DNA of 24,000 bases from Desulfobotulus sp. (GTDB lineage: Bacteria > Desulfobacterota > Desulfobacteria > Desulfobacterales > ASO4-4), in assembly GCF_034006065.1 (NCBI RefSeq), contig NZ_JAVETM010000001.1, positions 293,147 to 317,146 on the forward strand, written 5' to 3'. Position numbers and translations under genes: made by a program. The notes beneath the pieces were generated by a model that was not told where the DNA came from, did not search any database, and saw only the letters and a list, made by a program, of their open reading frames with translations. Below, in pieces: positions 9,391 to 23,862 of the stretch (the first letter of the stretch is position 1; each line of letters starts with the position of its first letter).

Positions 9391-9420
9391 TTGACATGAA
9401 AAGTTCATCGGGTGTACCTT
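9391..9420 (+). promoter_or_regulatory. Candidate promoter for module 1 (TTGACA with an A/T-rich UP-like tract)
   Basis: TTGACA at 9391-9396 follows about 60 nt of nearly pure A/T (9330-9388). The best -10 is weak (TACCTT, 9415-9420, 18-nt spacer). It would give a leader of roughly 215 nt containing the aptamer. Confidence 0.35.
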
Positions 9421-9504
9421 GCCTTCCATACAAAACACTGTTTACACAGCAAAGCGGCGACAACGCGGAGACACAGATTTCCGCGACGCATACACCCCGT
9501 GATC

Positions 9505-9598
9505 CGCCTATGTACAAAGCCAAACTCCGGGTAACCGGAGGACGGAAAGCCTACGGGTCCGCAAGATTGTCTTCCGGATGGCCGGGTTACCAAAGGCG
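9505..9598 (+). promoter_or_regulatory. GEMM-I (c-di-GMP-I class) riboswitch aptamer, single copy
   Basis: GCCAAAC-TCCGG-GTAA-CCGGA-GGACGGAAAGCC-TACGG-[GTCCG..CGGAT hairpin]-GGCCGGGTTACC. This has the same block order as the V. cholerae Vc2 aptamer as I recall it (GGCAAACC / GNRA-capped hairpin / GGGACGCAAAGCC / second hairpin / GGGGUUACC). The flanks CGCCT (9505-9509) and AGGCG (9594-9598) can close an outer helix. It sits about 40 nt before the SD AGGAGG and ATG 9641. Confidence 0.75.
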
Positions 9599-9640
9599 AA
9601 CTGCTCTCCAAAACCCTATTTTCACCAGGAGGAAGTTCGT

Positions 9641-10450
9641 ATGAAACGCAATTTCGGCAAAAAACTCATCATCGGCGCGGCCCTCTGCTGCCTTCCCTTC
9701 TCCGCCATGGCTCTGGAAGCTCTGGATGACAGCGCCCTCGGTGGCGTCACCGGTCAGGCCGGTGTGAGCATTGCTCTGGACGATGTGGTGATCTACATGA
9801 AGAGCATTGCAGATGTGACCTACATTGATACGGATGGTTTTGGAGGCGTTGATCGTGCTGGTATCATGATTGAGCACCAGACCGGTGGAGAAAAACTCAT
9901 CACTCTGGGCGCCATTGTGACCGATGATGTTTACGGTATCGATAAACTCAATGCCACATTCAACACCGACAATATCGGTATCCTCTCAAAAGCCGCCATC
10001 AATTCCAAAATGAATGAAATGGCAGCAGCTGCACAGCTTGCCGCCGGAGCTATTGACCAAGCCACATACGATGGCATAGCCGCTGCTGTGGATCCCAATG
10101 CAGTAAATTTTGATCCCACCAACGGATCTACCAGCAACTTTACCAATGGTATCTCCCCCCTGACCATCGATATCGGTGAGGCCGTTGCCCTTACCCAGGG
10201 CTGGACCTACAATACCAATGATACCATCCGAGGTGTAAAAGGCACCCATGTTGCCGGTGTCACAATTGGCCTGCCCACCGTGGAAATCAATACCTACTAC
10301 AACACTGTAGGCGAGCAGAAAGCAATCAAGCTTGTGGAAGTTGGTGATCATGTAGTGAATAAAGGCCACAATGAATTTATCACCATCAGAAAAACCGGTA
10401 ACGCCACCATGGCCATCCTCGGCGGCCGTCTGGAAATCGCTCCCCACTGA
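9641..10450 (+). CDS. Secreted protein, TGQAG-motif family paralog 1 (269 aa); candidate major subunit or cargo
   Basis: AGGAGG lies 8 nt upstream. Signal peptide MKRNFGKKLIIGAALCCLPFSAMA is followed by LEALDDSALGGVTGQAGVSIALDD. The protein is Thr/Asn/Gly/Ala-rich with no Cys after the signal peptide. Its N- and C-terminal segments resemble those of the proteins at 10556 and 18551. Confidence 0.85.
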   Translation: MKRNFGKKLIIGAALCCLPFSAMALEALDDSALGGVTGQAGVSIALDDVVIYMKSIADVTYIDTDGFGGVDRAGIMIEHQTGGEKLITLGAIVTDDVYGIDKLNATFNTDNIGILSKAAINSKMNEMAAAAQLAAGAIDQATYDGIAAAVDPNAVNFDPTNGSTSNFTNGISPLTIDIGEAVALTQGWTYNTNDTIRGVKGTHVAGVTIGLPTVEINTYYNTVGEQKAIKLVEVGDHVVNKGHNEFITIRKTGNATMAILGGRLEIAPH

Positions 10451-10489
10451 TGCAAATCCGGCTTAACCTCCAAGCCTGAATGCCAACGA

Positions 10490-10520
10490 AGCCCCCTCTC
10501 CTGACCGGGGAGGGGGCTTT
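10490..10520 (+). terminator. Strong hairpin with a weak U-tract after the first gene (partial terminator or attenuator)
   Basis: AGCCCCCTCTCC-tgacc-GGGGAGGGGGCT is a 12-bp stem (one G.U pair) followed only by TTT. It lies 40 nt after the stop at 10450 and 36 nt before the next ATG. Confidence 0.5.
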
Positions 10521-10555
10521 GCAACAAAAAAGCCTCGCCGGGGATCGCGACGACC

Positions 10556-11575
10556 ATGAAAATCCTTTGCCTGTTTTTTATCTGCCTCACGTGGCTCAGC
10601 CTCTGCGCCGCGCATCGCAGCGAAGCACTCCAGGCTATGGCGGATACGGATCTGGCCGCATGCACAGGACAGGCGGGCATTTCCATGGCCATTGCGGATC
10701 TGGTGGTCTATCATCATCAGGAAAACATCGCCTTTATCAGCAACCGCAAAATCGATGAAAATACCACTACCCAAACCCCGCTCACCCTCAGCAATACCCA
10801 AAGCCTTCTTACTCTGAATGCGGGCAGAACCGACATCAACGGCAATGGCAAAATTGATCCCATCACCTTGGACATCGGCATGCTTTCCGATCTGGAACGG
10901 CTCTGGAAGGAGCCCAACTGGCTGCCGGAAGATCAGTGGGAAATAATAGATGCCTTGCCCGCCGGTGTACTGGATCGCCCTGTAATCGCCCTTCGCGCTC
11001 CGGACTGGGACAGAAACCTTGAAATCCGCAACAATGGCATTTCCTTGAATGATGTGAATCTCGGTTCTTTCTCCCTTCAGGGCAGTAAGACCCAGGGGTG
11101 GGAGCTTTTTCTTTCCGCAGGCCAGATCATGAAAGTGACTGCCCCTGATGATCCTGATGATCCCAATATCCGCAAAGCGGGTATGGATTTTGAATTCGCC
11201 TTCCAAAAACACATTGAAGCCTTCACCTACAGCCCTTCCGAAAGCCAGACCCTTTCCTTTGACAATCTCTATTTTGCCAAAGACCTGACCTTTTCCGAGA
11301 CCAATGCTTCAGACATCACCGCCTCGGGTTTCTTCCGCCTGGGCAACATGCGGGAGGGCAAACCCCTCTCCATCGATATGGGCGTAACCACCGAAGGCAG
11401 AAGCCAAGCGACCCCTGTCTTAAGGCTGGACCTGAAAGATGCCAGCGGCTCCTTTGCCGTAGCCGGTATCCGGGACATCCAGGGAGCGGAAACCCGCAAC
11501 TTCGGCCCTGTCATTGCCGAAGGAATTCAGATTCATCATATGCGTCTGGAATTCCCCGGTCGGGGGACCCCATGA
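10556..11575 (+). CDS. Secreted protein, TGQAG-motif family paralog 2 (339 aa)
   Basis: Signal peptide MKILCLFFICLTWLSLCAA is followed by ...ALQAMADTDLAACTGQAGISMAIADLVVY. The motif occupies residues 28-39, the same register as in paralogs 1 and 4. There is no obvious SD sequence. Confidence 0.75.
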   Translation: MKILCLFFICLTWLSLCAAHRSEALQAMADTDLAACTGQAGISMAIADLVVYHHQENIAFISNRKIDENTTTQTPLTLSNTQSLLTLNAGRTDINGNGKIDPITLDIGMLSDLERLWKEPNWLPEDQWEIIDALPAGVLDRPVIALRAPDWDRNLEIRNNGISLNDVNLGSFSLQGSKTQGWELFLSAGQIMKVTAPDDPDDPNIRKAGMDFEFAFQKHIEAFTYSPSESQTLSFDNLYFAKDLTFSETNASDITASGFFRLGNMREGKPLSIDMGVTTEGRSQATPVLRLDLKDASGSFAVAGIRDIQGAETRNFGPVIAEGIQIHHMRLEFPGRGTP

Positions 11576-12573
11576 TCTCTGGTCTCACCCCGGAAAGAAG
11601 ACTTTGGCGAAAAAAGGCCCCCTCCCCCAAGGTCCCAGGGACTTTTTTCTGGGCCTTGTTTCTCATGCTTTCCCTGCCGGGTCTCAGCCTGGCCCAAGGG
11701 AATGGGCCTTCGGGTATTTTCGGCTTCTGTGATGGTCTGTTCAAAGAAGAGCAGAAAATCTTTTCCCTGGAAAAAGCCCCCCCCTTTCAAAGCAAAACGC
11801 CACAAAGTCCTTCGGCCATTTCGTCTCTGCCTGCTTCAGAAGAAAAGTCCCATACCTTCGCCCTCACCCAGAGCGAAAACCCGGTCTCTTCTTCCCCTTC
11901 TCCTGATCTTCTTCAGGCCAGCGCCCCCTTACAGGCCCTCTCCGACGGCGAGCTTCAGAACATCACCGCAGGCTCCATTGTGAATTTCACCATGGACGCA
12001 AGCCAGAATCTCGCCCGGATGGATCTGGATATGTACCTTGAAACGCACATGGAAATTGAAAAATTCCGTGCGGGCTATCACAACTACAATCCTGAGACCA
12101 GTCTGGGATGGGATCAGAGCTGGGATAAGGTGCGCTTCTATGGCGGGACTCTGGATGAAGAAAAGAATCCTTCAGATTTTTTCAAAGCCTATGGCCTGAC
12201 CCTTGTGGTGGAATATGAGGGTACAGAGAACAGCCGCAAGATTGCCCGTATTCTCCTGGGTTCCCCCCAGGTTTCGGGTAAAATCGATGCGCAGTTCAAC
12301 CACTTCTCCGGTGTCATCGATCAAGCGGTCAATGCCCATCTGAATGAATCCCAAGACTTAAACCCCTACCGCGTAAATCTTGGGCAGCAGACCCTTACTT
12401 TCAGCCAGGCCAATCAGGGACTTTTCCTCGGCCTGACCTTAAGCGGCGATCGCCCGGGCTTTGGCGTATTTGCGGGAAAACCCCTGGATGGCACAGGCGG
12501 TATTCTGGAAGCAGGCCGCTCAGACTGGTGGACCCAACCGGCGGGAAGCCTCTCCAAAGATTCAGCCCCCTGA
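11572..12573 (+). CDS. Secreted protein with an S/P-rich linker and an internal GG-leader-like motif (TGQAG-family paralog 3, divergent)
   Basis: ATGA start/stop overlap with the upstream gene. Hydrophobic signal ...FFWALFLMLSLPGLSLAQG, then a Ser/Pro-rich stretch of about 80 aa, then LQALSDGELQNITAGSIVNFTMD (residues 123-134). The start codon is uncertain. Confidence 0.65.
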   Translation: MISGLTPERRLWRKKAPSPKVPGTFFWALFLMLSLPGLSLAQGNGPSGIFGFCDGLFKEEQKIFSLEKAPPFQSKTPQSPSAISSLPASEEKSHTFALTQSENPVSSSPSPDLLQASAPLQALSDGELQNITAGSIVNFTMDASQNLARMDLDMYLETHMEIEKFRAGYHNYNPETSLGWDQSWDKVRFYGGTLDEEKNPSDFFKAYGLTLVVEYEGTENSRKIARILLGSPQVSGKIDAQFNHFSGVIDQAVNAHLNESQDLNPYRVNLGQQTLTFSQANQGLFLGLTLSGDRPGFGVFAGKPLDGTGGILEAGRSDWWTQPAGSLSKDSAP

Positions 12574-12684
12574 TCATAAGACTTTACAGCGCTTCCATGG
12601 GCTGCTACAAAGCAAAACATTGTTTCAAACACAAAAAGGCCCATTGAACCCTGATCGCCCCTAACCCGGAGCCTGGATCTCTCC

Positions 12685-13440
12685 ATGCACATCCTCGCCG
12701 CCTTTGTCATATTCCTTGCCTTTGCCAATGGTTTCCATCCCATCTCCGAAGAAAAGGAAAGTCACGCCGTTTTTGTGGTGGATCCGGATCAACGCATTGT
12801 GCTGCGTACCCCTGTGGTAACGGATGAGATCATCCAGTTTCGCCACCTGGTACGCCAGAACTTTGATTATTCCTGCGGGTCTGCGGCCCTGGCCACCCTG
12901 CTCAATGCTGCCATGGGCGAAAATCTCACGGAACGTCAGGTCATCCATGGTCTCATGGAATACGGAGACAAGGAGCAGATTGCCGCACGCAGAGCCTTTT
13001 CCCTTCTGGACATGAAACGCTTCGTCAATGTGCTGGGCTATGACGGCGCAGGCTATAAGGCAAAAATGGAAAACCTGCTCGATCCCCAGTACTGGCCTGC
13101 CATTGTTCCCATCAAAATCTTTGATTACCGTCATTTCGTCGTTTTTCGCGGAGCCTACGGCGGCCATGTCTTCATCGCCGACCCCTGGCGGGGAAACAGC
13201 AGCTACACGGAGGAACAGTTTGCGTCCATGTGGTATGACAATGTCATGTTTCTTGTTTCCAACGGCGAAAAAAAACATCCCAACCTCCTGCGCCTGCGCA
13301 CGGAAGACCTTCGCTATATCGACGAAGACACGGCCCGGTATTTTGTCTTTGACCAGGAAAAACCCTTTAACACCCCAAGGGACACCCAGGTGCCTGTCAA
13401 AGACGGCGTTCCCGCAGGGGGCTATTTTTATAAACCCTAG
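12685..13440 (+). CDS. Periplasmic stand-alone C39-like cysteine peptidase
   Basis: Signal peptide MHILAAFVIFLAFANG. C39 signature RQNFDYSCGSAALATLLN (Q58, C64; Cys codon 12874-12876), then ...DYRHFVVFRG..GHVFIADP (H150, D166). The Q-6-C and H-16-D spacings match what I recall for bacteriocin-processing C39 domains. Confidence 0.8.
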   Translation: MHILAAFVIFLAFANGFHPISEEKESHAVFVVDPDQRIVLRTPVVTDEIIQFRHLVRQNFDYSCGSAALATLLNAAMGENLTERQVIHGLMEYGDKEQIAARRAFSLLDMKRFVNVLGYDGAGYKAKMENLLDPQYWPAIVPIKIFDYRHFVVFRGAYGGHVFIADPWRGNSSYTEEQFASMWYDNVMFLVSNGEKKHPNLLRLRTEDLRYIDEDTARYFVFDQEKPFNTPRDTQVPVKDGVPAGGYFYKP

Positions 13441-13459
13441 AGTCTGAGGTCCGGAGATC

Positions 13460-14521
13460 ATGGTTTTTCGTCTTTTTCTTCTCATTCTTTTCTTCTTCTG
13501 CACAACAGCCCCCTCATGGGCGGAGAACGATCCGGAAATCCGGCTCCTTGAGGAGCGTCTCCAGGAGCTGGAGGCCTCCCTCAAACGCATGCAGGAAGAA
13601 AACGAGGCCCGCAGAACCCTTCAGAGTACAGCCGAAGAAAAGGCGGCTCAGGAAGAGGAAATCCTTTCCGCCGCGGGCAGGGATTACACCCTGATGCGGC
13701 CCGGACGCATGGGATTTGAATACAATTTCCGCTACTCCTACTACAGTTATGACCAGCTTGTGGAAGCCGGAAAAATCGAGCACAAGAGCAATCACAACAT
13801 TGAAAACAGCATGGTGGTGGAATATCCCCTGAAGCCCAATCTCACCCTGAGCGCAGATTTTCCCTTTGTCTTTAAAAGCGACAACAAATCCTCAGATGGC
13901 TCTTCCCGTCAGGTGTCCGATATCGGGGACTTTGTGCTGGGATTTCAGTATCAGCCCCTGAAATCCGGCGGAAAAATACCGACCACCATCCTTTCCCTCC
14001 GCGCCAGCCTGCCCGTGGGCCGCAGCCCCTATGACATCGATCCGGACAAGGAGATGGCCACCAGCTCCGGCACATACAGCCTCACCGCCGGGGCCAACTT
14101 CAGCAAGGTTTTTGATCCCATCATTGCCTATGGTGGACTGAGCTACAGCTATTATCTGCCGGAAAGCACCCGCTACCACGCCAAAGGCGTATCCTCACCG
14201 GAATATGTCTCTGAAGTGAACCGGGGAGAGCAGTTCGGATTCAGCGCCGGGTTTGGTTATGCCCTTTCTTACAGGCTCAACATCAACCTCAGTTATCAGT
14301 ACAGCCTCAGTATGCGCTCCAAATACACCTGGACCACCGATGAGACCCCGGAAAAATGGGAGACCCAGAGCCCCACATCCGCATCCTCAGTTTTCAGTAT
14401 CGGCACGGGCTGGCGCATCAGCAGCAAACGCACCATGAATGTGCGCCTTGGCATCGGCCTTACCAACAATGATCCGGACTTTACCCTGGCCATACGCCTG
14501 CCCTTTGAACTGGTCTTCTGA
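13460..14521 (+). CDS. Outer-membrane beta-barrel protein with an N-terminal coiled-coil segment
   Basis: Signal peptide MVFRLFLLILFFFCTTAPSWA. A charged heptad-like helix of about 55 aa follows (EIRLLEERLQELEASLKRMQEENEARR...EEKAAQEEE), then about 270 aa of alternating amphipathic strands ending ...AIRLPFELVF with a terminal Phe. Confidence 0.75.
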   Translation: MVFRLFLLILFFFCTTAPSWAENDPEIRLLEERLQELEASLKRMQEENEARRTLQSTAEEKAAQEEEILSAAGRDYTLMRPGRMGFEYNFRYSYYSYDQLVEAGKIEHKSNHNIENSMVVEYPLKPNLTLSADFPFVFKSDNKSSDGSSRQVSDIGDFVLGFQYQPLKSGGKIPTTILSLRASLPVGRSPYDIDPDKEMATSSGTYSLTAGANFSKVFDPIIAYGGLSYSYYLPESTRYHAKGVSSPEYVSEVNRGEQFGFSAGFGYALSYRLNINLSYQYSLSMRSKYTWTTDETPEKWETQSPTSASSVFSIGTGWRISSKRTMNVRLGIGLTNNDPDFTLAIRLPFELVF

Positions 14522-14576: not shown

Positions 14577-16412
14577 ATGGAAACGTGTTTTGTGAAAAAC
14601 CATCCGCGCTGCCGCCCACTCACGAAACGGTCCGGGTTCGATTCAGCCTGCCTCTGGATCGTTGCCCTTGTCCTTTTTTGCCTGGTGCTTCGGCCTTTTT
14701 CCGCCGAAGCCAACTTCAATGAGCAGGTGGCCATCAGCACCAAGGCCATTTCCCTTGCCAATACCGTGACCGCAGACCCGCCGGGACTCATGTCCGTTCA
14801 TTACAACCCCGCAGGTCTCAGTCTTCTGGATGAGGGCAAGGTGTTCAGCAATGGTTTCACCCTGGCTCACATTGTCCGTACGGGACGCTTTCAGGAAGAT
14901 CCGAACTTCCCTGGTTTCATGGACACCTGGGGCCCGGGTAAACCTTACAATCCCGACTTTCCCAATGACCCTGACAGCGACCATGGCGGTCCGGACCCTC
15001 TCCGGGGGACAGAAGGCACAACCTCCGGCAACATTCTTTATGTGCCCTTTTATGGTCCCATCAGCCTCCCCGCCATCCCCGCACCCAACTTAGGTATTTC
15101 CCACAGAAGCCCAGGCTCCCGCTGGACCTTTGCCTATGCCAATTATGCGGCCTACGGCGGAGGGATTGAGCATAAGGATGCGGGCGACCCTTTGCGTTTC
15201 GGATGTAAGTCTTTGTATCTCCAGCACCTTATCTATGCAGCCCCTTCGGTGAGTTACCAGATTTCGGACACCCTTTCCGTGGGCGCCTCCATTGGCATGG
15301 GCCAAACCTCCATGGGCATTGCCATGGACCAGCGTTCTCCCAATGAGCTGGTGGCCCTCACCCGCGTCATCGGTGACGCCACAAGGGATCTTCACATTCC
15401 CGTGGTCTCAGACATGACCTTTCCCGCTCCCTGGCTGGGAGGCGGCCTGGGGCCCTATGAGCATGTGGCGAGCTTCAGGCTGGACATGAGAGACGATTAT
15501 TCCCCCAGTTTCAACCTAGGCCTCCTCTGGCAACCCCATCACCGCTTTTCCTTTGGCCTCGTTTACCAGAGCGAGACCCAGTCTGAAATGACAGGTAACT
15601 ATATTTTTCACTATTCGGAACAATTCCAGCGTCATATTGACTGGAACGGATCCACCTCCTACACCATGCAGGGAGCGGGTATTCTTGGCCTTCCCATCAA
15701 AGGGCTTCCCTTTCAGGCAGGGACGGTCACCACCACCCAGAGGTTTCCCCAGAGGGTGCAGGCGGGAATCATGGTCAAACCCTTTTCCCGCATCAAATGG
15801 CTCTTTGATGTCAACTGGACCAACTGGTCTGTCATCAAGGAAGACCGCCTTCAGTTTGATCAGCGCATCCATCTTCTTCAGCTTGTTAAACTTCTCGGTT
15901 ACACGGGCGGAGAAAGTACGCTTCTAGTGGAGCGCAATCTCAAAGACACCTGGAGCTTCAGCACAGGTCTTGAGTTCATGGTATCCGAGGCCTTAAGTCT
16001 GCGCCTTGGGTATGAAAAGCGGCCCACGTCCTTAAACTATGACCTCTTTGACGCCCTGTATTTTCTTCCGGAAAACAATTTTTACGGCACAGGCGCGGAA
16101 TTACGCTTAAAAAATGGGCTTACCATCGATCTCGGCATGGGGATTCTCATGGCAGATAAGATCAAGGTGGACAACAACCGTTCCACCAACATGAATTCCA
16201 CGGATTTCACGAAGATCGTATACAACCCCTATGCGGGTCTCAACTATGAGCAGGACACCACCATCTACCTTGCCTCCTTTACCATCACCATGCCCCTTGA
16301 GCTGCAGATGGAGCTTTTGGAGCAGAAAAAGGAGATGGCCTTAAAAGCCCTTTCCAAACTCAAAAAACTCTGGCCCTTTGGATCCAGAAAAGAAAGCACA
16401 AAAGCCCAGTGA
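14577..16412 (+). CDS. FadL/OmpP1/TodX-family outer-membrane channel, unusually long (611 aa) with a C-terminal helical tail
   Basis: The N-terminal region after the signal (LWIVALVLFCLVLRPFSAEA) reads ...AISLANTVTADPPGLMSVHYNPAGLSLL, a typical FadL-family opening. Later FadL-like blocks are present (LRLGYEKRPTS..., FYGTGAELRL). After the last strand comes the tail ELQMELLEQKKEMALKALSKLKKLWPF.... The start is uncertain: ATG 14577 has no clear SD, and GTG 14592 is an alternative. Confidence 0.7.
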   Translation: METCFVKNHPRCRPLTKRSGFDSACLWIVALVLFCLVLRPFSAEANFNEQVAISTKAISLANTVTADPPGLMSVHYNPAGLSLLDEGKVFSNGFTLAHIVRTGRFQEDPNFPGFMDTWGPGKPYNPDFPNDPDSDHGGPDPLRGTEGTTSGNILYVPFYGPISLPAIPAPNLGISHRSPGSRWTFAYANYAAYGGGIEHKDAGDPLRFGCKSLYLQHLIYAAPSVSYQISDTLSVGASIGMGQTSMGIAMDQRSPNELVALTRVIGDATRDLHIPVVSDMTFPAPWLGGGLGPYEHVASFRLDMRDDYSPSFNLGLLWQPHHRFSFGLVYQSETQSEMTGNYIFHYSEQFQRHIDWNGSTSYTMQGAGILGLPIKGLPFQAGTVTTTQRFPQRVQAGIMVKPFSRIKWLFDVNWTNWSVIKEDRLQFDQRIHLLQLVKLLGYTGGESTLLVERNLKDTWSFSTGLEFMVSEALSLRLGYEKRPTSLNYDLFDALYFLPENNFYGTGAELRLKNGLTIDLGMGILMADKIKVDNNRSTNMNSTDFTKIVYNPYAGLNYEQDTTIYLASFTITMPLELQMELLEQKKEMALKALSKLKKLWPFGSRKESTKAQ

Positions 16413-16444
16413 ACCTCTCCCAATTCTGAGTCAATGGAGTATGT

Positions 16445-17935
16445 ATGCCTTCTTTCCTCGTACAAGTCTTCTTTGTTTTCCTTGCTCTTGTTCTTCCCGT
16501 CGGCGGTCTTTGTCAGCCCAGCCTGCGCGTTACCGAAGAATTTTTCGGAATGCCCGAATCCGGTATCCAGATTTTCGGCCTCACGGCGGATGACCAGCTC
16601 AGCCATGTGGCCTATGCGGTGCAGGATGAAAAGGGTATGTTCGTTCGCATGGACAAAGAGGAGGGACCTCACTTTGAGTCCATCCGCAAAGGCACCCCGC
16701 TTTTCGGCCCCCAGGGCCATATCATGGTCTACGTAGGCTTCCGACAGGCCAAAAGCCATGTCTGGGTGAATGGGAAGGAAAAGGGGATTTACGATGGCGC
16801 AGACAGTTTTACCTTCAGCCCAACGGGTCAGCATCTGGCCTATCGCGTTGAAGTTAAAGGCCAGGGCCAGGCCGTGGTTTCCGGAGACAAACAAGGACCT
16901 TTTTTCCGGATGGTGGATCCGGAAAGCCTTGTCATGGCCCAGGACGGAGGCCTTGCCTATGTGGGGATGGACCCGGACAGAGGGGCGGTGCTCATGGTCA
17001 ATGGCAGGGAGGCCGGGATTTTTGAGGGGGTGCGGGAGCTACGCTTTTCCCCAGAAGGCCATTTTGCCTGTGCTGTGAAAAAAGATGGCCTGTGGCACCT
17101 TTTTCTGGAAAACACCATGGAAAAAGAAGGGTATGAGGGCATTCAGTACATTGGATTTTCCCCGGACAGTGAGAAAATCGCCCTTGTCATCCTCCGTAAG
17201 GGCAAACTCAGTGTGCGCATGGGAAAGGACACCCACAGATCCTGGGATACGGTGGGGCCTCCCCTCTTTTCTCCGGACAGCCAACGCCTTGCCTATCCCG
17301 CCAAACAGGGTGAGCGCTGGGCCATGGTGGTGGATGGAAAAAGGGGGGATCGCCACGATCTTCTGGGCCCGCCCCTCTTTTCTCCGGACAGTCAGCACAT
17401 CGCCTGGATGGCTGTGGAAAAAGATCACTCTTTTTATGTGGTGAACCACAAAAAACAGCCTGCCTATGAGACTGTGGACGGCTTTGCCTTTCATCCGCAA
17501 AAAGGCTTTGCCTACAGGGCCAGGCAAAAGGAAAAATGGCATCTTGTCACCGAGCTTGGGGAAGGCCAGGCCCATGATGGCGTCACGCCCCCCCTCTTCC
17601 ATGAAAACGGCCGTCTTCTCTTTGGCATTGCCGATGATCATCAGCAGCGGCTGGTGGTGGATGGGGTTCCCGGCCCTCCGGCGGATCAGATCAGCCCTGC
17701 GGTTTACAGTCCAGGAGGCCAGCATGTGGGATGCGCTGTGATTCTCGATAAAAAATGGTACCTGGATATGGATGGCCAGCGCACTCCCATTGAAAATATC
17801 ACCGCCTTTCTCAATCAGGCGCCGGTGCGGTTTATTGATGAAAACACCATGCAGGGGCTGGCTTACCAGCTTCCTGGGCCCCGTTTTCTGAAAATCTCCG
17901 CAACCCTTGAAAATTTCAAGGAAACCATTGAGTGA
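16445..17935 (+). CDS. Secreted beta-propeller-like repeat protein (PD40/TolB-like FSPDG repeats)
   Basis: GGAG lies 5 nt upstream. Signal peptide MPSFLVQVFFVFLALVLPVGGLC. There are about 10 repeats of roughly 40 aa carrying F/YSP(D/E/T/G)(G/S)xxhAY-type motifs (FSPTGQHLAY, FSPEGHFAC, FSPDSEKIAL, FSPDSQRLAY, FSPDSQHIAW, YSPGGQHVGC). Confidence 0.7.
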   Translation: MPSFLVQVFFVFLALVLPVGGLCQPSLRVTEEFFGMPESGIQIFGLTADDQLSHVAYAVQDEKGMFVRMDKEEGPHFESIRKGTPLFGPQGHIMVYVGFRQAKSHVWVNGKEKGIYDGADSFTFSPTGQHLAYRVEVKGQGQAVVSGDKQGPFFRMVDPESLVMAQDGGLAYVGMDPDRGAVLMVNGREAGIFEGVRELRFSPEGHFACAVKKDGLWHLFLENTMEKEGYEGIQYIGFSPDSEKIALVILRKGKLSVRMGKDTHRSWDTVGPPLFSPDSQRLAYPAKQGERWAMVVDGKRGDRHDLLGPPLFSPDSQHIAWMAVEKDHSFYVVNHKKQPAYETVDGFAFHPQKGFAYRARQKEKWHLVTELGEGQAHDGVTPPLFHENGRLLFGIADDHQQRLVVDGVPGPPADQISPAVYSPGGQHVGCAVILDKKWYLDMDGQRTPIENITAFLNQAPVRFIDENTMQGLAYQLPGPRFLKISATLENFKETIE

Positions 17936-17952: not shown

Positions 17953-17981
17953 TTGACCCTTGCATCTTTTTTTCATAAAGT
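17953..17981 (+). promoter_or_regulatory. Candidate sigma70-type promoter for module 2
   Basis: TTGACC (17953-17958), a 17-nt T-rich spacer, then TAAAGT (17976-17981). It would give a leader of about 560 nt containing the inverted repeat and all five aptamers. A second TTGACA at 18039-18044 has no acceptable -10. Confidence 0.35.
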
Positions 17982-18065: not shown

Positions 18066-18119
18066 CCATGTGTGGCGCTGAAGAACCCCCTATTGCCGGG
18101 GCTTCAGCGCCACACATGG
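18066..18119. repeat. Perfect 18-bp inverted repeat (long hairpin or palindromic operator)
   Basis: CCATGTGTGGCGCTGAAG (18066-18083) is the exact reverse complement of CTTCAGCGCCACACATGG (18102-18119). Inside the 18-nt loop, CCCC/GGGG can add 4 more pairs. No U-tract follows on either strand. Confidence 0.8.
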
Positions 18120-18145
18120 AGGTAAAGGGGTCGTCGAAGCGATGC

Positions 18146-18207
18146 GCCAAACCATGGGCAACCATGGGACGGAAAGCCACGGGTCCCACAGGGACAGCCG
18201 GGCCGCC
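18146..18207 (+). promoter_or_regulatory. GEMM-I-like riboswitch aptamer, tandem unit R1
   Basis: GCCAAAC-CATGG-GCAA-CCATG-GGACGGAAAGCC-ACGG-[GTCCC-aca-GGGAC]-AGCCGGGCCGCC. It has a GNRA loop (GCAA) and is nearly identical to R4. Confidence 0.75.
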
Positions 18208-18218
18208 TCAATCCTCAA

Positions 18219-18290
18219 GCCAAACCGGAGGTAACTCCGGGACGGAAAGCCACGGATCCAGAACTTTACATCTGGACAGCCGGGTTGCAC
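18219..18290 (+). promoter_or_regulatory. GEMM-I-like riboswitch aptamer, tandem unit R2
   Basis: GCCAAAC-CGGAG-GTAA-CTCCG-GGACGGAAAGCC-ACGG-[ATCCAGA-actttaca-TCTGGAC]-AGCCGGGTTGCA. Both stems differ from R1 by compensatory changes. Confidence 0.75.
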
Positions 18291-18294
18291 CAAA

Positions 18295-18360
18295 GCCAAA
18301 CCGGGGGTAACCCCGGGACGGAAAGTCACGGATCCGCATGGTGCGGATGGCCGGGCCGCC
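18295..18360 (+). promoter_or_regulatory. GEMM-I-like riboswitch aptamer, tandem unit R3
   Basis: GCCAAAC-CGGGG-GTAA-CCCCG-GGACGGAAAGTC-ACGG-[ATCCGCA-tgg-TGCGGAT]-GGCCGGGCCGCC. It has its own second-hairpin sequence and is followed by a separate hairpin at 18360-18378. Confidence 0.7.
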
Positions 18361-18378
18361 TGCCGGAATTTCCGGCAG
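18360..18378 (+). promoter_or_regulatory. Hairpin immediately 3' of aptamer R3 (possible internal expression platform)
   Basis: CTGCCGG-aattt-CCGGCAG is a perfect 7-bp stem. Its left arm starts at the last nucleotide of R3, and it is followed by ATTTCA, which is not a convincing U-tract. Confidence 0.4.
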
Positions 18379-18384
18379 ATTTCA

Positions 18385-18446
18385 GCCAAACCATGGGCAA
18401 CCATGGGACGGAAAGCCACGGGTCCCACAGGGACAGCCGGGCCGCC
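18385..18446 (+). promoter_or_regulatory. GEMM-I-like riboswitch aptamer, tandem unit R4 (copy of R1)
   Basis: It has the same 62-nt sequence as R1 as far as I can align by eye and lies 239 nt downstream of R1. Confidence 0.75.
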
Positions 18447-18456
18447 TCCTTCTCAA

Positions 18457-18527
18457 GCCAAACCGGGGGTAACTCCGGGACGGAAAGCCACGGGTCCAGA
18501 ACTTTACATCTGGACAGCCGGGTTGCC
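18457..18527 (+). promoter_or_regulatory. GEMM-I-like riboswitch aptamer, tandem unit R5 (copy of R2)
   Basis: GCCAAAC-CGGGG-GTAA-CTCCG-GGACGGAAAGCC-ACGG-[GTCCAGA-actttaca-TCTGGAC]-AGCCGGGTTGCC. It differs from R2 at two stem positions. Its end lies 10 nt before the SD AAAGGAG and 23 nt before ATG 18551. Confidence 0.75.
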
Positions 18528-18550
18528 TGTAGTACAGAAAGGAGTCTTCC

Positions 18551-19021
18551 ATGAGCAAGCTTCGTTTCCTCCTGGTTTTCTGCACCATGACGGCAATCAC
18601 CCTGTCCACGGCCTCTGCCGGACTGATTGCCATGACAGAAACCGAAATGCATCATGTGACCGCCCAGGCTGGTGTTTTCATCGATGTGGACAAGGTCCGC
18701 TTTGATTCCGAAATGAAAACCCTTAGTTACGGCAGCGATGCCACCGGATGGATCAGCCTCAATGACGTGAGGATTTCCACCTTCGTCAACAGCGGCAAAC
18801 CCATTGAGGTGGGCATGGTTACCGAATACAACCCCTACGAGGGCCGTACCATGGAAATGATGAAAATCGACTTTACGGATGTGGAAATCCGCATGGACGA
18901 ACTTCTCATCGGCTCCATCCGCGTGGGTCCCCGTCCGGGGGAAGGGCCAAGCTTCGGGAGCATCGGCATCACCGGGTTTCACGCAAACATGTCAGGGAAC
19001 GTGCGCATATGGACCCGCTGA
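18551..19021 (+). CDS. Small secreted protein, TGQAG-motif family paralog 4 (156 aa)
   Basis: AAAGGAG lies 6-7 nt upstream. Signal peptide MSKLRFLLVFCTMTAITLSTASA is followed by GLIAMTETEMHHVTAQAGVFIDVD, with the motif at residues 28-39. Its C-terminus (...GFHANMSGNVRIWTR) resembles that of paralog 1 (...GNATMAILGGRLEIAPH). Confidence 0.85.
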   Translation: MSKLRFLLVFCTMTAITLSTASAGLIAMTETEMHHVTAQAGVFIDVDKVRFDSEMKTLSYGSDATGWISLNDVRISTFVNSGKPIEVGMVTEYNPYEGRTMEMMKIDFTDVEIRMDELLIGSIRVGPRPGEGPSFGSIGITGFHANMSGNVRIWTR

Positions 19022-19197
19022 GGTTCTGTGCCTGGACGCACCCCTTTACCTCCTCCTTTTTCCCCATGTCAGAAGTGCTGGAAATACCAAAGTACCGCAT
19101 CCTTTCCATGCCATTCCAACCCTTCTCCCTTTCCCGATCTGACCCATAACCCCTTTTTAGGCGGCACCCCATGCCCCGGAAACCGCAGGATTGTCCC

Positions 19198-20061
19198 ATG
19201 CAACCCGCTTTTATCTTGATTTTGTTGCTTTTTCCATTTTGGTTTTCCCCTGTTTCGGCCCAGGCCGCGCCCTTCCTTGCGCCCGGTCAGATCACCGGAA
19301 CAGCCGGGCCCGCGGATCCGCCGGAACAAGGGCTTGCAAAGGGCATGGTCAGCCTTTCCCTCTTTACCCAGAAAAATGAATCGCCCCTGGGAAGGGAACG
19401 TTTTGCATGGATAGATCCGGAGGATGAAAACCAGGAAGAACGCCACAGAGCACGAAAATGGCGCTCCATCTATGACATGCAGGGTCTGAGCCTGAGGGGT
19501 GCCTATGCCTTTTCTGCAGTCTCCGCCTATTTCCTGGTTGGGATGGCGCAAACGGACATCACCTTTTCCTACAGGGATGAAACCAGAAAATATCAGTCTT
19601 CCAGCGCTTTTTATGACGAAAGCACCCGCTTCCGGGATGAAAGCCATCTTTTTTTCGGTGGTGGTCTCACCGCAGCCATGGCCCGCTGGCAACCCAATCC
19701 CGATACACGCATCGCCCTGGATGCGGATCTTTCTTATCGCTACCACGCCTTAAACCCCGAAGACCAGAACAGTCGAAGCTGGAGTTCTGTACTCCACGAA
19801 ATCCAAGGAGCCATGACCTTAGGCCTCATGATGGAAAAATGGACACCCTTCACAGGCCTTCGCATCAGCCACATCAGCGGCCAAATGACCTATGAGGACA
19901 AAAAAGAGGGGATCAGGGTCAGCAAAAGCATTGAGGCGGGAAAGGATATTGGCTATACCTTCGGCATTCGCTACCGCGCCCTGCCCTGGCTGGATCTGAC
20001 CCTTGCCTCCCGCTACGGGGATGAAAGCGGATATCACCTGGAATGCGCCTTTGTTTTCTGA
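19198..20061 (+). CDS. Small outer-membrane beta-barrel protein (about 287 aa)
   Basis: AGGA lies 7 nt before ATG 19198; the alternative ATG 19171 has a poorer SD. Signal peptide MQPAFILILLLFPFWFSPVSAQA, alternating-strand pattern, and a C-terminus of ...GYHLECAFVF with terminal Phe. Confidence 0.7.
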   Translation: MQPAFILILLLFPFWFSPVSAQAAPFLAPGQITGTAGPADPPEQGLAKGMVSLSLFTQKNESPLGRERFAWIDPEDENQEERHRARKWRSIYDMQGLSLRGAYAFSAVSAYFLVGMAQTDITFSYRDETRKYQSSSAFYDESTRFRDESHLFFGGGLTAAMARWQPNPDTRIALDADLSYRYHALNPEDQNSRSWSSVLHEIQGAMTLGLMMEKWTPFTGLRISHISGQMTYEDKKEGIRVSKSIEAGKDIGYTFGIRYRALPWLDLTLASRYGDESGYHLECAFVF

Positions 20062-20086
20062 CTGTCCCCAAAGGAGAATCCCAACC

Positions 20087-22237
20087 ATGCAAACTCTTTC
20101 CGGCAAAATACGGTATTTATCCGGATTTCTGCTGATTTTCTGTTTCTGCACCGGCGCCTTTGCCCAGGCAAAGATCAGCGGAGTGCTGCGCTGGCCAGGC
20201 AGCAGCATACGATCGGTCACAGGCAACAGCGACCATCTCATTCACACCCATGGCAATCTTCTACGGATATTTCAGAGAACGGATGACACGCTTCTTGCCG
20301 CCGTCCCCATCGCCCTTCAGGAAGGCCTGCGCGGCCTTGCCCATGCGCCGGATCAGAATCGTATTTACCTGGCCTGTGGCACGGATGGTCTGCGCATCCT
20401 CAACCTTGAAAATCCCACACACCCTGTGGTGACAGCCTACGACATCAATCCGCAAAATGCCGGAAAAAAAGACGCAAGTGGCCGGTATATCGCCCATACC
20501 TTTGCCCCCATGGGCCTCTTTTACCTGGAAAAACGCCTCTATGTGGCGGATTTCATGTATGGCCTCCGGGTTTTTGATGTCAGCATTCCCGAAGAGCCGA
20601 AGGAAATCGCAGCATATCGCCAGGGCACTGGGGATGCATCCGGCGGTTATCTCCAGGTTTTTGTGCACCGGGAAGCAGGACGGACCCTGATCTCGGTTCT
20701 GGATAAATACCACGGCCTCCACCTTTTCGATGCAGCGGACCAGCAGGCCGGAGACGCTGAAAAAAAATGGACGCCCGCAGCTAGCTTTGATATGCGTTCC
20801 AAAACCTATTATGGTCAGATTTCCCTGGTCACTGGCCTCTTTGCAGAAGGTCCCAGGGTTTTTGTAACAGACGAGGAAAACGGGCTGACCATCCTCCACC
20901 TTTTCAATGAATCCCAGCAGAGGGACTCTTTAAAAATTGTCAAGGAGGGCCAGTGTAAAACCCCTGGAAAGGCCATGGACCTTGTTGTGGATACCCATCT
21001 TCAGCGGGCTTTCATCGCAGACACGGAAAAAGGCCTTTCCGTTGTGGGTCTTGAATCCCTCTTTGACAATGATCCCGCAACCCGTGTGCAGGACAGCGAC
21101 TTCAAAGGCGCAGAAAGCCGCGCGGATGATCTCGGGGGCAGCCACAGCCTCTGGAAAGATCCCATGGAAAATGCCCTCTACCTTGCTTCCTATGCCAAAG
21201 ATCTCAGTCGTATCCGTCTCGGGTCGCCGCAGATAGAAAAAACCTTTCCGCCAGCTCTGGATTTTCGCCAGATCCAACGGCAAGGATCCACCCTCATCCT
21301 TTCGGACCACGGTCATTTAAGGGGGTTTCGCGTCATGGACATCACCCATATGCTTGAGCCAGATTCCGATGCAGCCTATTTTCCAAGGCAACTGGCGGAA
21401 AAAGGAACCCAGGCCCCGGCCCAGGCTCTCCGGGTTTCCGGAAACCGCCTTTTCACCGCAGAAGGGCCAAAGGGCCTGGGCGTCTATGATCTCACGGATC
21501 CGGCTGCGCCCCTTTTTCTTGCCCAGATTACAGCCCAGGAAATTCCGGGGCTTGACGATGTGCGGGATGTGGTCATCCGCGATGCCCTCGCTTTCTGCCT
21601 CATTCAGGGAAAGGGGATTGCGGTTCTTGATCTGGCCAATCCCGCTCAGCCTGTGCAGAAAAACCTGATTTCCGAGTACGACCAGGCCGTGGGACTTTTT
21701 CTGGATGCCAGCACCCTCTGGATCGCAGACAGACAAAAGGGACTTGTCGCCCTTTCCGTTACCCATCCTGAAACGCCCGAAAAAATCCGTAGCCTGGCCC
21801 TCACAGCCCCCCAAGCTCTCTGGGCGGATGAAACGCGGGTTCTTGTGGCCGAAGGACCCCATGGGCTTTTTGTTTATGAAAAAACAAGCGGCCTTTCTTC
21901 CCAGGTGGCCCTGAAGGACGGGGCCGAAGCTGCCCATGTTTTTGGCCTGAATCATTTTGCCTTTGTGTCCTGTGGGCAAAAGGGCGTGCAGATGATCGAC
22001 CTCACAGCCTCCCAAGGTCCTGAGACCGTAGCCTCGCTGGACAGCTATGGAAAAACCCTTGCTGGCTTAGGGCTCAACCAGGATCTGTACATGGCGGAAG
22101 CCACAGGTGGGCTTGCGGTTTTGCGCTTTGTACTCGGAGACGAAGCCTCCCCAGCCCCCCTGCCCAGCATCCGGACCAGTTCATCTTCCTGCTTTCTGGA
22201 CAGCCTGATTCATGGGAAAAAGGGGATCCGGCCATGA
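20087..22237 (+). CDS. LVIVD-repeat beta-propeller protein, secreted (716 aa)
   Basis: AGGAG lies about 10 nt upstream of ATG 20087. Signal peptide MQTLSGKIRYLSGFLLIFCFCTGAFAQA. LVIVD-type units recur: LYVADFMYGLRVFDVSIPEEPKEI, AFIADTEKGLSVVGL, LFTAEGPKGLGVYDLTDPAAP, AFCLIQGKGIAVLDLANPAQP, LWIADRQKGLVALSVTHPETPEKI, VLVAEGPHGLFVYE, AFVSCGQKGVQMIDLT, LYMAEATGGLAVLRF. Confidence 0.8.
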   Translation: MQTLSGKIRYLSGFLLIFCFCTGAFAQAKISGVLRWPGSSIRSVTGNSDHLIHTHGNLLRIFQRTDDTLLAAVPIALQEGLRGLAHAPDQNRIYLACGTDGLRILNLENPTHPVVTAYDINPQNAGKKDASGRYIAHTFAPMGLFYLEKRLYVADFMYGLRVFDVSIPEEPKEIAAYRQGTGDASGGYLQVFVHREAGRTLISVLDKYHGLHLFDAADQQAGDAEKKWTPAASFDMRSKTYYGQISLVTGLFAEGPRVFVTDEENGLTILHLFNESQQRDSLKIVKEGQCKTPGKAMDLVVDTHLQRAFIADTEKGLSVVGLESLFDNDPATRVQDSDFKGAESRADDLGGSHSLWKDPMENALYLASYAKDLSRIRLGSPQIEKTFPPALDFRQIQRQGSTLILSDHGHLRGFRVMDITHMLEPDSDAAYFPRQLAEKGTQAPAQALRVSGNRLFTAEGPKGLGVYDLTDPAAPLFLAQITAQEIPGLDDVRDVVIRDALAFCLIQGKGIAVLDLANPAQPVQKNLISEYDQAVGLFLDASTLWIADRQKGLVALSVTHPETPEKIRSLALTAPQALWADETRVLVAEGPHGLFVYEKTSGLSSQVALKDGAEAAHVFGLNHFAFVSCGQKGVQMIDLTASQGPETVASLDSYGKTLAGLGLNQDLYMAEATGGLAVLRFVLGDEASPAPLPSIRTSSSSCFLDSLIHGKKGIRP

Positions 22238-23862
22238 AAAAACGCTACCTTCTTCCAGGGATTCTGGGACTTGCCCTCATTGCCCTTTTCGCCATAATCC
22301 CCTTTCTCAAGGCAGAAAAAGAAACCTCTCCCTTGCTGCTGACTGCGGATGCCCAGTATCTTTCTCCTCCCCAGCCTAAGGTTTTTCTGATCGAACCAGT
22401 CCCAGCACCCGCGCCTCTGCCCACGGAGATCCTGCTTTCCCATGAAGAAAACCAAAGGCTCGCCGCACAGGAAGCCCTGGATTCCCAGCAGGGGGAAAGT
22501 CTTCCCACGGAAGCCCTTTTTTCTGCCCCTGAAAACCTTGACAGCAAACCAGAGCCATCATTGCCCCCTGTTTCCCATGCTGCGGATGCAGCCGGGGTCC
22601 CCAAAGACAGGAACACAGCAACCAACCTTTTACGCGGCATTGATATTCAGACGGAATCCAGAGATATTCGGGTGCAGGTTCTTGCGGAAAAGAGTTTTCA
22701 CCGGATCCGGGCCTTTACCCTCCAAAACCCCGCACGCCTGGTCCTGGATATCTGGGATCTGCAATCGCCCTTTACCACGGAACAACGTCAGACAGCCAGC
22801 GCTCCCATCCTTCAGATCCGACACTTTGCCCACCCAGACCGGGTTCGCCTGGTCCTTGATATGGAAGAAGACTGGTCCGGCCATTACTCCACCCAAAGCC
22901 TGGAAAAGGGTCTTGAAATTCGTCTGGGCAAGGATCCAGCCCAGGATTCTCCGGAAACCCTCCCCCAAGAAAGGGAAACCTCAGTCTCCGTTCTTCCGCC
23001 CCAAAGCCCTGTCCCTCTCCCAGGGGAAATCCAAAGCAAAATGATTTCTGCGCCCACAGCCCCTTCCGAAGAAGCAGACAGGATTTTCAGCGAAAAAAAA
23101 AGCACGCGTGAGCCTCTTTTTGACGAAAAAATCGAAGAGTCCAGCCTGGAAGAAAAGGATACCGCAGAAAGGGAAAATGAATCCCAAGATTTTTCCGAAC
23201 CTGAAAGTCCCCAGATTTCAGAAAAAGAACGGGAAAGGGATCAGATCCAGAAACGCCTCGCCCTTCTTCTGGCTCAGGAATTCTGGCTGGAACCCAGGGA
23301 TCTTCTCATGCGCATCCAGGCCCTGGGATCCGAGGGGAAAACCGCCTTACCCATTATCCTGGAAGTTCTTGAGAAAAAAAACCATCCCTACGCCCAATAC
23401 CGGTTCACCCAGATTGCGGCCATGGAGGCCCTCGCAGCCATTCAACCGGAGCCCCAGGAGGTGGAAGCCCTGCTCGCTTCCTATCTTTCCGAGCGTCATT
23501 TCATGCTGCGTAAAACAGCGGTCAGGACCCTGGGGCTGATCGGGGCCCAAGGTGATCTCGCCTACCAGGCCCTGTGTCAGGCCGCGAAATCAGATCCTTC
23601 GGCTCCCGTCCGGGAAGCGGCAAGCACAGCACTGGGACGGACGGGCGGAGCTCTCCGGGAAGAAGGTTTTCAGGTATTGCTGGAAAGATGCAAAGACAAA
23701 AGCAGCCATGTACGCCTTGCCGCAGTACGGGTACTCTCCGGGGTTCGGGAAAAACGCCCCGAAGCCTCCCAGGCTCTGAATCAGGCCAGAGAAGATCTCA
23801 ATGAAAAGGTACGCCACCTCGCGGTTCTGGCGCTCGAAGAGGACAGGGTTTCCCGACAGTGA
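22234..23862 (+). CDS. Membrane-anchored AMIN-domain protein with an acidic linker and C-terminal HEAT-like repeats
   Basis: ATGA overlap with the upstream stop. N-terminal anchor LLPGILGLALIALFAIIPFL. AMIN-like block (IRVQVLAEKSFHRIRAFTLQNPARLVLDIWDL...ILQIRHFAHPDRVRLVLDM...LEIRLG), then an E/S/P-rich linker, then repeated ...VR.AA..ALG... helices (VREAASTALGRTG, VRLAAVRVLSGV, VRHLAVLALEE). Confidence 0.75.
   Translation: MKKRYLLPGILGLALIALFAIIPFLKAEKETSPLLLTADAQYLSPPQPKVFLIEPVPAPAPLPTEILLSHEENQRLAAQEALDSQQGESLPTEALFSAPENLDSKPEPSLPPVSHAADAAGVPKDRNTATNLLRGIDIQTESRDIRVQVLAEKSFHRIRAFTLQNPARLVLDIWDLQSPFTTEQRQTASAPILQIRHFAHPDRVRLVLDMEEDWSGHYSTQSLEKGLEIRLGKDPAQDSPETLPQERETSVSVLPPQSPVPLPGEIQSKMISAPTAPSEEADRIFSEKKSTREPLFDEKIEESSLEEKDTAERENESQDFSEPESPQISEKERERDQIQKRLALLLAQEFWLEPRDLLMRIQALGSEGKTALPIILEVLEKKNHPYAQYRFTQIAAMEALAAIQPEPQEVEALLASYLSERHFMLRKTAVRTLGLIGAQGDLAYQALCQAAKSDPSAPVREAASTALGRTGGALREEGFQVLLERCKDKSSHVRLAAVRVLSGVREKRPEASQALNQAREDLNEKVRHLAVLALEEDRVSRQ

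Follow-up and report, generated by a model that had tools for sequence, protein, structure and literature searches.

Gene content and layout of the locus

The stretch of DNA analysed here (the window) covers 24,000 nucleotides (nt) of Desulfobotulus sp., positions 293,147 to 317,146 of the metagenome contig NZ_JAVETM010000001.1, and carries a cluster of genes for exported proteins together with six class I cyclic di-GMP (c-di-GMP-I) riboswitch aptamers. The cluster consists of 11 substantial co-directional open reading frames (ORFs), g1 to g11, on the + strand between positions 9641 and 23862, and no minus-strand gene of any family lies between them. Its end is about 150 nt from the contig end, and the view stops after g11. 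The genes are listed below, with lengths in amino acids (aa) and E values or bit scores of the main matches.

9641-10450, + strand: g1, DUF6160 (FilA-type) subunit, 269 aa; signal peptide, then leader-like motif LDDSALGGVTGQAG
10556-11575, + strand: g2, second DUF6160 subunit, 339 aa; motif MADTDLAACTGQAG; PF19657 29.6 bits (cutoff 27)
11572-12573, + strand: g3, exported protein of a family other than DUF6160, 333 aa; Pro/Ser-rich linker, then motif LSDGELQNITAG
12685-13440, + strand: g4, periplasmic C39 cysteine peptidase, FilB/FapD homologue; NCBIfam FilB 2.3e-61, FapD 4.6e-34
13460-14521, + strand: g5, outer-membrane barrel homologous to FilC/FapF; NCBIfam FilC 2.4e-52, FapF 1.3e-26
14577-16412, + strand: g6, FadL-family barrel, FilD homologue, 611 aa; Toluene_X 5.7e-34, NCBIfam FilD 5.9e-90
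16445-17935, + strand: g7, exported repeat protein; weak PD40 and TmcD-like repeats; accessory of Desulfobacterota loci
18551-19021, + strand: g8, small DUF6160 subunit, 156 aa; motif MTETEMHHVTAQAG; PF19657 40.3 bits
19198-20061, + strand: g9, probable small outer-membrane barrel, 287 aa; Pfam OMP_b-brl 2.5e-4, below cutoff
20087-22237, + strand: g10, exported LVIVD-repeat protein, 716 aa; Pfam LVIVD 42.6 bits (cutoff 20.2)
22234-23862, + strand: g11, AMIN and HEAT-repeat protein, 542 aa; Pfam AMIN 2.5e-9, HEAT_2 9e-19

Start and stop codons overlap by 4 nt each at 11572-11575 (g2/g3) and 22234-22237 (g10/g11), and short gaps of 19 nt (13440 to 13460), 32 nt (16412 to 16445) and 25 nt (20061 to 20087) separate other neighbours. 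The gap between g7 and g8 measures 615 nt and holds a promoter-like site. The gene caller, applied to the same contig, contributed a single further ORF, of 46 aa, which overlaps the end of g8; for g6, whose ORF is open from 14439, the gene caller start at 14577 was used. An earlier reading of the same DNA (the original prediction) had described 12 co-directional genes: the shared direction, the overlaps and the gaps held, and the number of substantial ORFs came to 11. It had also stated that every product carries an export signal or membrane anchor and that no ATPase, regulator or cytoplasmic enzyme is encoded. Both statements were borne out. A crude hydropathy scan, which is not a signal-peptide predictor, found one N-terminal hydrophobic segment and no later transmembrane-like segment in 11/11 products, and domain searches of these products detected no ATPase, regulator or cytoplasmic enzyme domain.

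Relatives of the machinery, subunits and gene order

The proteins encoded by g4, g5 and g6 match FilB, FilC and FilD of the Fil system at the E values listed above, and direct comparison with FilB, FilC and FilD of Acinetobacter soli gave 1e-53, 2e-48 and 2e-73, respectively. In the alignment of g4 homologues, Q58, C64, H150 and D166, the putative catalytic residues, were invariant, and the family profile matched the double-glycine-motif protease domains 6mpz and 4ry2 (PCAT1). The N-terminal segment of g5 is rich in E, L, K and R and coiled-coil-like as judged by eye, and residues 146-349 match the FapF entries 5o65 and 5o67 in the PDB (E 8e-19). The FapD and FapF models gave 117.6 bits for g4 and 93.4 bits for g5 (equivalog cutoffs 330 and 700), less than the FilB and FilC models. 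Because all Fil and Fap scores fall far under the curated cutoffs, g4 to g6 are distant homologues and not equivalogs. Judged by these relationships, the locus is a distant Fil/Fap lineage and not a member of the narrow Acinetobacter family. The original prediction had concluded that the parts match no system that could be named, which the Fil matches overturn. Family searches confirmed DUF6160 (g1, g2 and g8), C39 (g4), FadL/Toluene_X (g6), LVIVD (g10) and AMIN with HEAT (g11); the PD40 assignment of g7 was weak (24 bits), with TmcD_fam matching at 1.6e-22, far under the cutoff of that model.

Three of the genes encode DUF6160 proteins. The g1 product matched Pfam PF19657 with 46.3 bits (cutoff 27) and the NCBIfam FilA model with an E value of 2.5e-8 (33.7 bits; cutoff 220), and g8 aligned to the DUF6160 profile in hhalign with a probability of 90% and an E value of 1.5e-6. 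In related loci, g2-like genes come after g1-like genes. The AF2 model of g1 (predicted local distance difference test score 84.2) showed a helical motif region and a beta-rich remainder with inserted helices. The g3 product, which had been taken for a further paralog, matched no family in Pfam or NCBIfam, and we rejected that assignment: its alignment to the DUF6160 profile is limited to a 24-aa motif (E 0.28). That motif is present in 14/14 g3 homologues found in related loci.

The motif is common to g1, g2, g3 and g8 and reads [LM]-x-[DE]-x-[ED]-[LM]-x-x-[VI]-T-[GA]-Q-A-G. It directly follows the signal peptide in g1, g2 and g8 and follows the additional Pro/Ser-rich linker in g3. An iterated hidden Markov model (HMM) recovered it in 116 ORFs of related loci; conservation was strong at T, G/A, Q and G. 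Double-glycine leaders have the consensus L-S-x-x-E-L-x-x-I-x-G-G, and by pattern the subunit motif appears to resemble them closely; one instance scored 14.3 bits against the double-glycine leader model TIGR01847 (cutoff 15.7). Because the sole enzyme of the system belongs to the family that cleaves such leaders, we infer that the motif is the recognition signal, and probably also the cleavage signal, of the periplasmic C39 peptidase g4. A literature search for an Edman N-terminus of FilA found none. One DUF6160 homologue (P0143) is labelled Chilomastix cuspidata in EukProt, most likely a bacterial contamination of a eukaryotic transcriptome.

We searched the GTDB species genomes by alignment with g4 homologues, which confirmed at least 595 stretches as relatives, and examined 80 loci: 33 from Desulfobacterota and 47 from Gammaproteobacteria (Marinobacter, Acinetobacter, Pseudomonas, Kistimonas and Oleiphilaceae). 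Window proteins were then searched against the six-frame ORFs of the 80 loci, and fractions given as "with room" refer to loci long enough to hold the neighbour. The g4-g5-g6 triad was found in 24/28 Desulfobacterota and 43/43 gammaproteobacterial loci with room, the FilB/FilC/FilD-type order was kept in 67/71 loci with room, and DUF6160 genes lay upstream of the triad in 21/26 Desulfobacterota loci with room. The order common across the 80 genomes is subunits, C39 peptidase, FilC-like barrel and FilD-like barrel. One of the loci retrieved by g4 homology, L083 of Acinetobacter soli, is a genuine filABCDEF locus that scores above all NCBIfam cutoffs.

The downstream genes are less widely distributed. 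Homologues of g7 occur in 16/33 Desulfobacterota loci; g9 and/or g10 homologues follow g7 without interruption in L006, L010 and L014, with g9 homologues after g7 or g8 in these three loci and L089, and g10 homologues adjoining the system in L008, L010, L012 and L014. The LVIVD-repeat (g10-like) gene of L008 and L012 comes after a riboswitch and a small DUF6160 gene. Genes like g8 were seen among the genome loci in L007, L031 and L034, and an aptamer array with a g8-like gene stands directly after a FilD-like gene or g7 in L007, L034, L087, L088, L089, L098 and L105. These results indicate that g7, g9 and g10 are Desulfobacterota-specific accessories. The co-occurrence of the families in other genomes, which the original prediction had named as a check, was thus found for g1 to g10 and failed for g11. 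Carriers of Fil-like loci include lipid and hydrocarbon degraders (Marinobacter, Oleiphilaceae, Acinetobacter, Smithella and Desulfatiferula olefinivorans; loci L038-L084, L026-L036 and P0077), and a link between Fil-like loci and hydrophobic substrates is possible.

Riboswitch aptamers and the tandem array

The six aptamers of the window lie as one before g1 and five before g8, the arrangement originally predicted. The coordinates and Rfam covariance model scores are as follows.

9509-9594, + strand: aptamer R0 in the g1 leader; RF01051 58.7 bits (gathering 35); P1 helix CGCCU/AGGCG
18137-18531, + strand: tandem array of five aptamers before g8
18137-18211, + strand: A1, 57.1 bits
18209-18292, + strand: A2, 60.7 bits
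18286-18364, + strand: A3, 52.6 bits
18372-18447, + strand: A4, 48.6 bits
18448-18531, + strand: A5, 62.5 bits
18446-18545, + strand: A5 closing helix, in which the anti-Shine-Dalgarno (anti-SD) CUCCU at 18446-18450 pairs with the g8 Shine-Dalgarno (SD) AGGAG at 18540-18544

Three of the six pass the Rfam gathering threshold, and the remaining ones reach 48.6-57.1 bits with variant models belonging to the same clan. The array is under-reported, with 2/5 members at gathering, because clan competition assigns the rest to RF03167 and RF03168, which have higher thresholds. Standard Rfam annotation would therefore under-count such arrays, as would surveys built on its output. A1 to A5 each matched our own model R1 over full length, and the six window aptamers have 40 invariant columns in common, among them the ligand-contact nucleotides G20, A47 and C92, numbered as in the Vc2 structure. 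The G-C pair beside the pocket is flipped to C-G. By these positions they are ordinary c-di-GMP-type aptamers, with c-di-GMP as the predicted ligand. We rejected the Rfam "GGC" and "UAU" variant labels, since in 6/6 aptamers the variant-defining position holds the A of the parent class: the RF03167 (c-di-GMP-I-GGC) consensus reads ...ACGCGAA... and the window ...ACGGAAA..., so that the window lacks the G in place of the A47 equivalent, and the high RF03167 score reflects general similarity within the clan. Specificity for cyclic GMP-AMP (cGAMP) was likewise rejected for the window, where G20 is present in 6/6 and A20 occurs solely in the arrays of relatives.

The aptamers recur at related loci. 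With our own covariance model, 12/33 Desulfobacterota loci showed same-strand aptamers immediately 5' of a g1-, g2-, g8- or g10-type gene, and in eight loci besides the window an aptamer holds the place of R0 ahead of a g1-like gene; none was detected in the 47 gammaproteobacterial loci, and Rfam detected none in 7 representative Fil loci. Taken over 49 distinct aptamers of this locus and its relatives, the share of paired cells was 96.1%, and 12 pairs showed double (compensatory) changes. None of 500 shuffles reached the observed values, and slid controls were 23-49% paired. The compensatory changes indicate that the GEMM-I helices P1b and P2 are maintained.

Within the array, A1-A2 is a near-duplicate of A4-A5, the two pairs flanking A3, and a small GC-rich hairpin with no U-tail (CUGCCGG AAUUU CCGGCAG, 18362-18380) lies at the A3/A4 junction of the duplicated units. 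In an independent assembly of a different sample, 559 nt running through A4 to the end of its contig show no difference from the window. We rejected an assembly artefact on account of this identical assembly and of the arrays present in many other lineages. A Syntrophaceae metagenome-assembled genome (L034) has four tandem aptamers, differing from each other, before a g8-like gene. A metagenome scan for at least three tandem cores returned 21 loci with 3-6 aptamers each, spaced 71-99 nt apart, and a small DUF6160 (g8-like) gene followed immediately in 18 of them. Longer metagenome contigs carried g4-g5-g6 upstream of the array or the order g7, array, g8, g9 (L089). The longest array seen here consists of six tandem aptamers before a small DUF6160 gene (L094, 146-617). 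Two five-aptamer arrays with a 71-74-nt period (L099, 113-475; L102, 7373-7735) are followed by a gene for a non-DUF6160 secreted protein (L102, 7740-8324); long arrays thus also occur outside the DUF6160 family.

Every array member keeps A47 and C92, and position 20 is A in 10 of 69 distinct cores. One such A20 member lies at 10298-10375 of L034, and in L085, L087, L088, L090, L093, L097, L101 and L105 it is the second aptamer; L092, L094, L098, L100 and L103 also have one A20 member each. The change from G to A at position 20 is linked to 3',3'-cGAMP selectivity (PMC9481103, PMC6456294), and arrays mixing G20 and A20 may by their sequence integrate two cyclic dinucleotides. A systematic survey in 2022 recorded 347 doublets and 12 triplets of c-di-GMP-I aptamers and none longer (PMC9481103), and our literature search found no report of c-di-GMP-I arrays longer than triplets.

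No intrinsic terminator follows any window aptamer; the terminator-like calls in the aptamer regions were minus-strand readings of P1b hairpins. Since a terminator follows none of the six aptamers, riboswitch control is most likely translational. The internal array aptamers are joined by 4-24-nt linkers and have no P1 partner and no platform or terminator of their own. Predicted pairing probabilities for the single bases of the A5 closing helix were 0.72-0.92, and the SD was paired to this flank at 0.90. A CCUCCU flank stands before the last aptamer in nearly all arrays found, where this linker is predicted to pair with the SD AAAGGAG 10-25 nt past the aptamer; the anti-SD/SD pairing is 0.90 in the window and about 0.2-0.99 in the other arrays. 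From this anatomy, the last aptamer alone is predicted to touch the ribosome-binding site, by the anti-SD:SD closing helix. In studied aptamers the ligand stabilises P1. If it acts in the same way here, it would stabilise the closing helix, and c-di-GMP would therefore repress g8.

The g1-type leaders point in another direction. In relatives, the 3' strand of P1 (CUCUGG) doubles as the anti-SD, and blocking it raised SD accessibility in 6/9 related g1-type leaders, which in these folding models suggests activation. As a general ON/OFF call, P1 3'-strand blocking was rejected, as it gave ON in 6/9 relatives and no change for R0 of the window. The g1-type and g8-type subunit classes may, from their leaders, be regulated oppositely.

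The surroundings of the cluster complete the description. Genes with no relation to it lie on its 5' side, namely the last part of a FadL-family gene, an OpuA-type ATP-binding cassette transporter, UppP/BacA and a chemoreceptor. The first of these, at 53-868 on the left edge of the window, is the 3' part of another FadL/TodX-family outer-membrane gene and stands apart from the locus. A strong terminator-like hairpin of 12 pairs (9153-9184) lies 3' of the chemoreceptor gene and closes the upstream genes, setting the left limit of the transcription unit. An AT-rich stretch follows, then TTGACA at 9391 with a poor -10 element. Two further features lie in the g7-g8 gap.

17953-17981, + strand: predicted promoter-like site ahead of module 2 (the array and g8-g11), TTGACC-17 nt-TAAAGT; consensus scan match, 9/12 positions
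18066-18118, + strand: hairpin whose 18-bp stem is perfectly paired, located 3' of the promoter-like site and 5' of the array; -45.1 kcal/mol, z -5.5

No U-run follows the latter hairpin, which was found solely in this organism's own contigs.

Proposed secretion system, alternatives and known relatives

Taken together, the homologies, the conserved gene order and the aptamers before the subunit genes indicate that the locus probably encodes a Fil/Fap-type system that secretes extracellular fibre subunits across the outer membrane and assembles them. An envelope-only, barrel-based export system of the Fap or curli kind, gated by c-di-GMP riboswitches, had been the central idea of the original prediction, and homology and gene neighbourhood back it. 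In the proposed mechanism, the DUF6160 proteins g1, g2 and g8, together with g3, would cross the inner membrane by Sec, after which each subunit would expose the common helical motif. The periplasmic C39 peptidase g4 would recognise the motif and probably cleave it, and the subunits would exit through the FapF-like channel g5 with its coiled-coil-like N-terminal segment to reach the surface and form fibres. The FadL-like barrel g6 would be a second outer-membrane component and g7, g9 and g10 lineage-specific accessories. The riboswitches, one aptamer before g1 and five before g8, would tie subunit synthesis to c-di-GMP at the level of translation.

Several observations weigh against this interpretation. 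The locus is known from sequence alone in this organism, and even for Acinetobacter sp. Tol 5 the Fil fimbriae are only "deduced", from fibres on triacylglycerol (PMC3498257). The FilB, FilC and FilD models gave 208, 179 and 302 bits against curated cutoffs of 475, 630 and 970; no window protein matched FilE or FilF in NCBIfam; and g1, g2, g3 and g8 matched none of the FapA, FapB, FapC and FapE families in Pfam or NCBIfam. Compared with the solved structures in the PDB, the AF2 model of g1 gave no meaningful fold match, so no relative showing a fibre-forming fold was identified. The motif has Q where double-glycine leaders carry the second G, and its TIGR01847 match is below threshold. In the g1 leader of the window, the SD stays at 0.19 with the P1 3' strand blocked, held in a separate hairpin. 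High c-di-GMP usually goes with matrix production, and the array anatomy suggests repression by the ligand, the opposite of this usual link. Finally, g11, considered as a conserved member of the system, was rejected, with no homologue in any related locus examined.

The absence of g11 from related loci also bears on an alternative in which the locus joins two unrelated neighbours, a Fil-like module 1 and a separate surface-protein operon formed by module 2. The 615-nt g7-g8 gap with its promoter-like site would fit such a border, as would the presence of g9 and g10 in few of the 33 Desulfobacterota loci. However, g8 shares both its DUF6160 family and its leader motif with module 1 subunits, the array with a g8-like gene directly follows a FilD-like gene or g7 in seven loci, g9/g10 follow g7 unbroken in three, and in two more a riboswitch and a small DUF6160 gene lead into an LVIVD-repeat gene. 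We therefore consider two separate operons quite unlikely. We regard as improbable a further alternative, in which the locus is mainly a device for contact with or uptake of hydrophobic substrates, with the FadL-like barrel as its core and DUF6160 proteins that bind substrate or coat the surface instead of polymerising. In its favour, g6 and FilD both belong to the FadL family, a further gene of that family lies at 53-868, many carriers are lipid or hydrocarbon degraders, and the presumed Fil fibres of Tol 5 were seen on triacylglycerol (PMC3498257). By contrast, a FapF-like channel and a C39 peptidase are secretion parts in the sole studied relative (PMC5557850), and c-di-GMP control fits surface structures better than nutrient uptake. 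The idea is also compatible with fibre secretion, so the two are not mutually exclusive.

For the array itself, it could be supposed that recent duplication produced it, with the last copy alone regulating and the others decaying or neutral. The near-identity of A1-A2 and A4-A5 and the internal aptamers without a P1 partner or own platform speak for this possibility, which we nevertheless find unlikely: arrays of 4-6 aptamers recur in divergent lineages, their sequences differ while the helices are kept by compensatory changes, members differ even within a locus (e.g., L034), and all of them keep A47 and C92, with position 20 varying, mostly G and sometimes A.

Within the Fil/Fap-type interpretation, we offer a more tentative combined proposal, which is possible though rather doubtful: that the 4-6-aptamer arrays are a new riboswitch architecture, each array being a single multi-site sensor, and that the motif is the Fil/Fap-type C39 recognition and cleavage signal. 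If true, an array would act as a sensor of c-di-GMP, and of cGAMP too where A20 is present, giving a threshold-like translational response of one fibre-subunit class. Long platform-less arrays and a leader-like motif common to all subunit classes both go beyond the literature searched. For RNA biology, up to six aptamers per ribosome-binding site exceed what surveys list and raise the question of how P1-less aptamers in series communicate. Secretion of the Fil/Fap type is barely explored and is widespread in Desulfobacterota (at least 595 related stretches across the GTDB species genomes overall), whose version has its own accessory set and c-di-GMP wiring at the RNA level. The motif bears on a question of the Fap field, namely what the essential periplasmic C39 peptidase acts on.

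The closest known system is Fil of Acinetobacter (filABCDEF, "Fil fimbriae" or "type III pilus"), in which a DUF6160 protein, a C39 peptidase with signal peptide, a FapF-like barrel and a FadL-like barrel follow one another as they do in the window. In Acinetobacter sp. Tol 5, FilA was found as a fibre protein of the cell surface and is a subunit candidate (PMC3498257, PMC11784438), and A. baumannii shows higher FilC and FilF in biofilm (PMC8792954). The Desulfobotulus locus differs in having g7, g9 and g10 in place of FilE and FilF, several subunit classes (g1, g2, g3 and g8) against one annotated FilA, and c-di-GMP riboswitches, which are absent from 47/47 gammaproteobacterial loci. FilE/FilF equivalents among g7-g11 were rejected, as phmmer of A. 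soli FilE and FilF against g1-g11 gave a best E value of 0.14.

The Fap system of Pseudomonas (fapABCDEF) likewise combines a periplasmic C39 peptidase, FapD, with an outer-membrane channel bearing an N-terminal coiled-coil region, FapF. Once Sec has exported the Fap proteins, their secretion needs no ATP; the FapF channel is a trimer whose coiled coil is periplasmic, and secretion depends on the catalytic Cys of FapD, a periplasmic C39 protease whose target is not known (PMC5557850). In contrast to Fap, the locus described here has the additional FadL-like barrel g6, DUF6160 subunits with no PDB fold match for the g1 model, and a leader-like motif, whereas Fap proteins were reported without canonical C39 recognition sequences (PMC5557850). 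No curli-related family (CsgG, CsgA/CsgB) was matched among the 11 products.

The array resembles the tandem c-di-GMP-I riboswitches of Bacillus thuringiensis (Bc3-5), where several aptamers share one 5' leader of a surface or adhesion gene (PMC4759541, PMC9481103). The triplet described there consists of three complete riboswitches (PMC4759541), whereas the arrays here have no per-aptamer platform, for which the 71-99-nt spacing leaves no room. They are also longer, with five aptamers in the window and four to six in relatives, the last aptamer provides their platform through a closing helix that sequesters the SD, and some arrays of relatives mix G20 and A20. The peptidase g4, finally, belongs to the same family as the C39 domains of bacteriocin ABC transporters (PCAT and LahT), and the subunit motif follows the leader pattern recognised there. 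Unlike those cytoplasmic domains of exporters, g4 is a free periplasmic protein, and the motif here follows a Sec signal peptide and has Q at position -1, then A-G.

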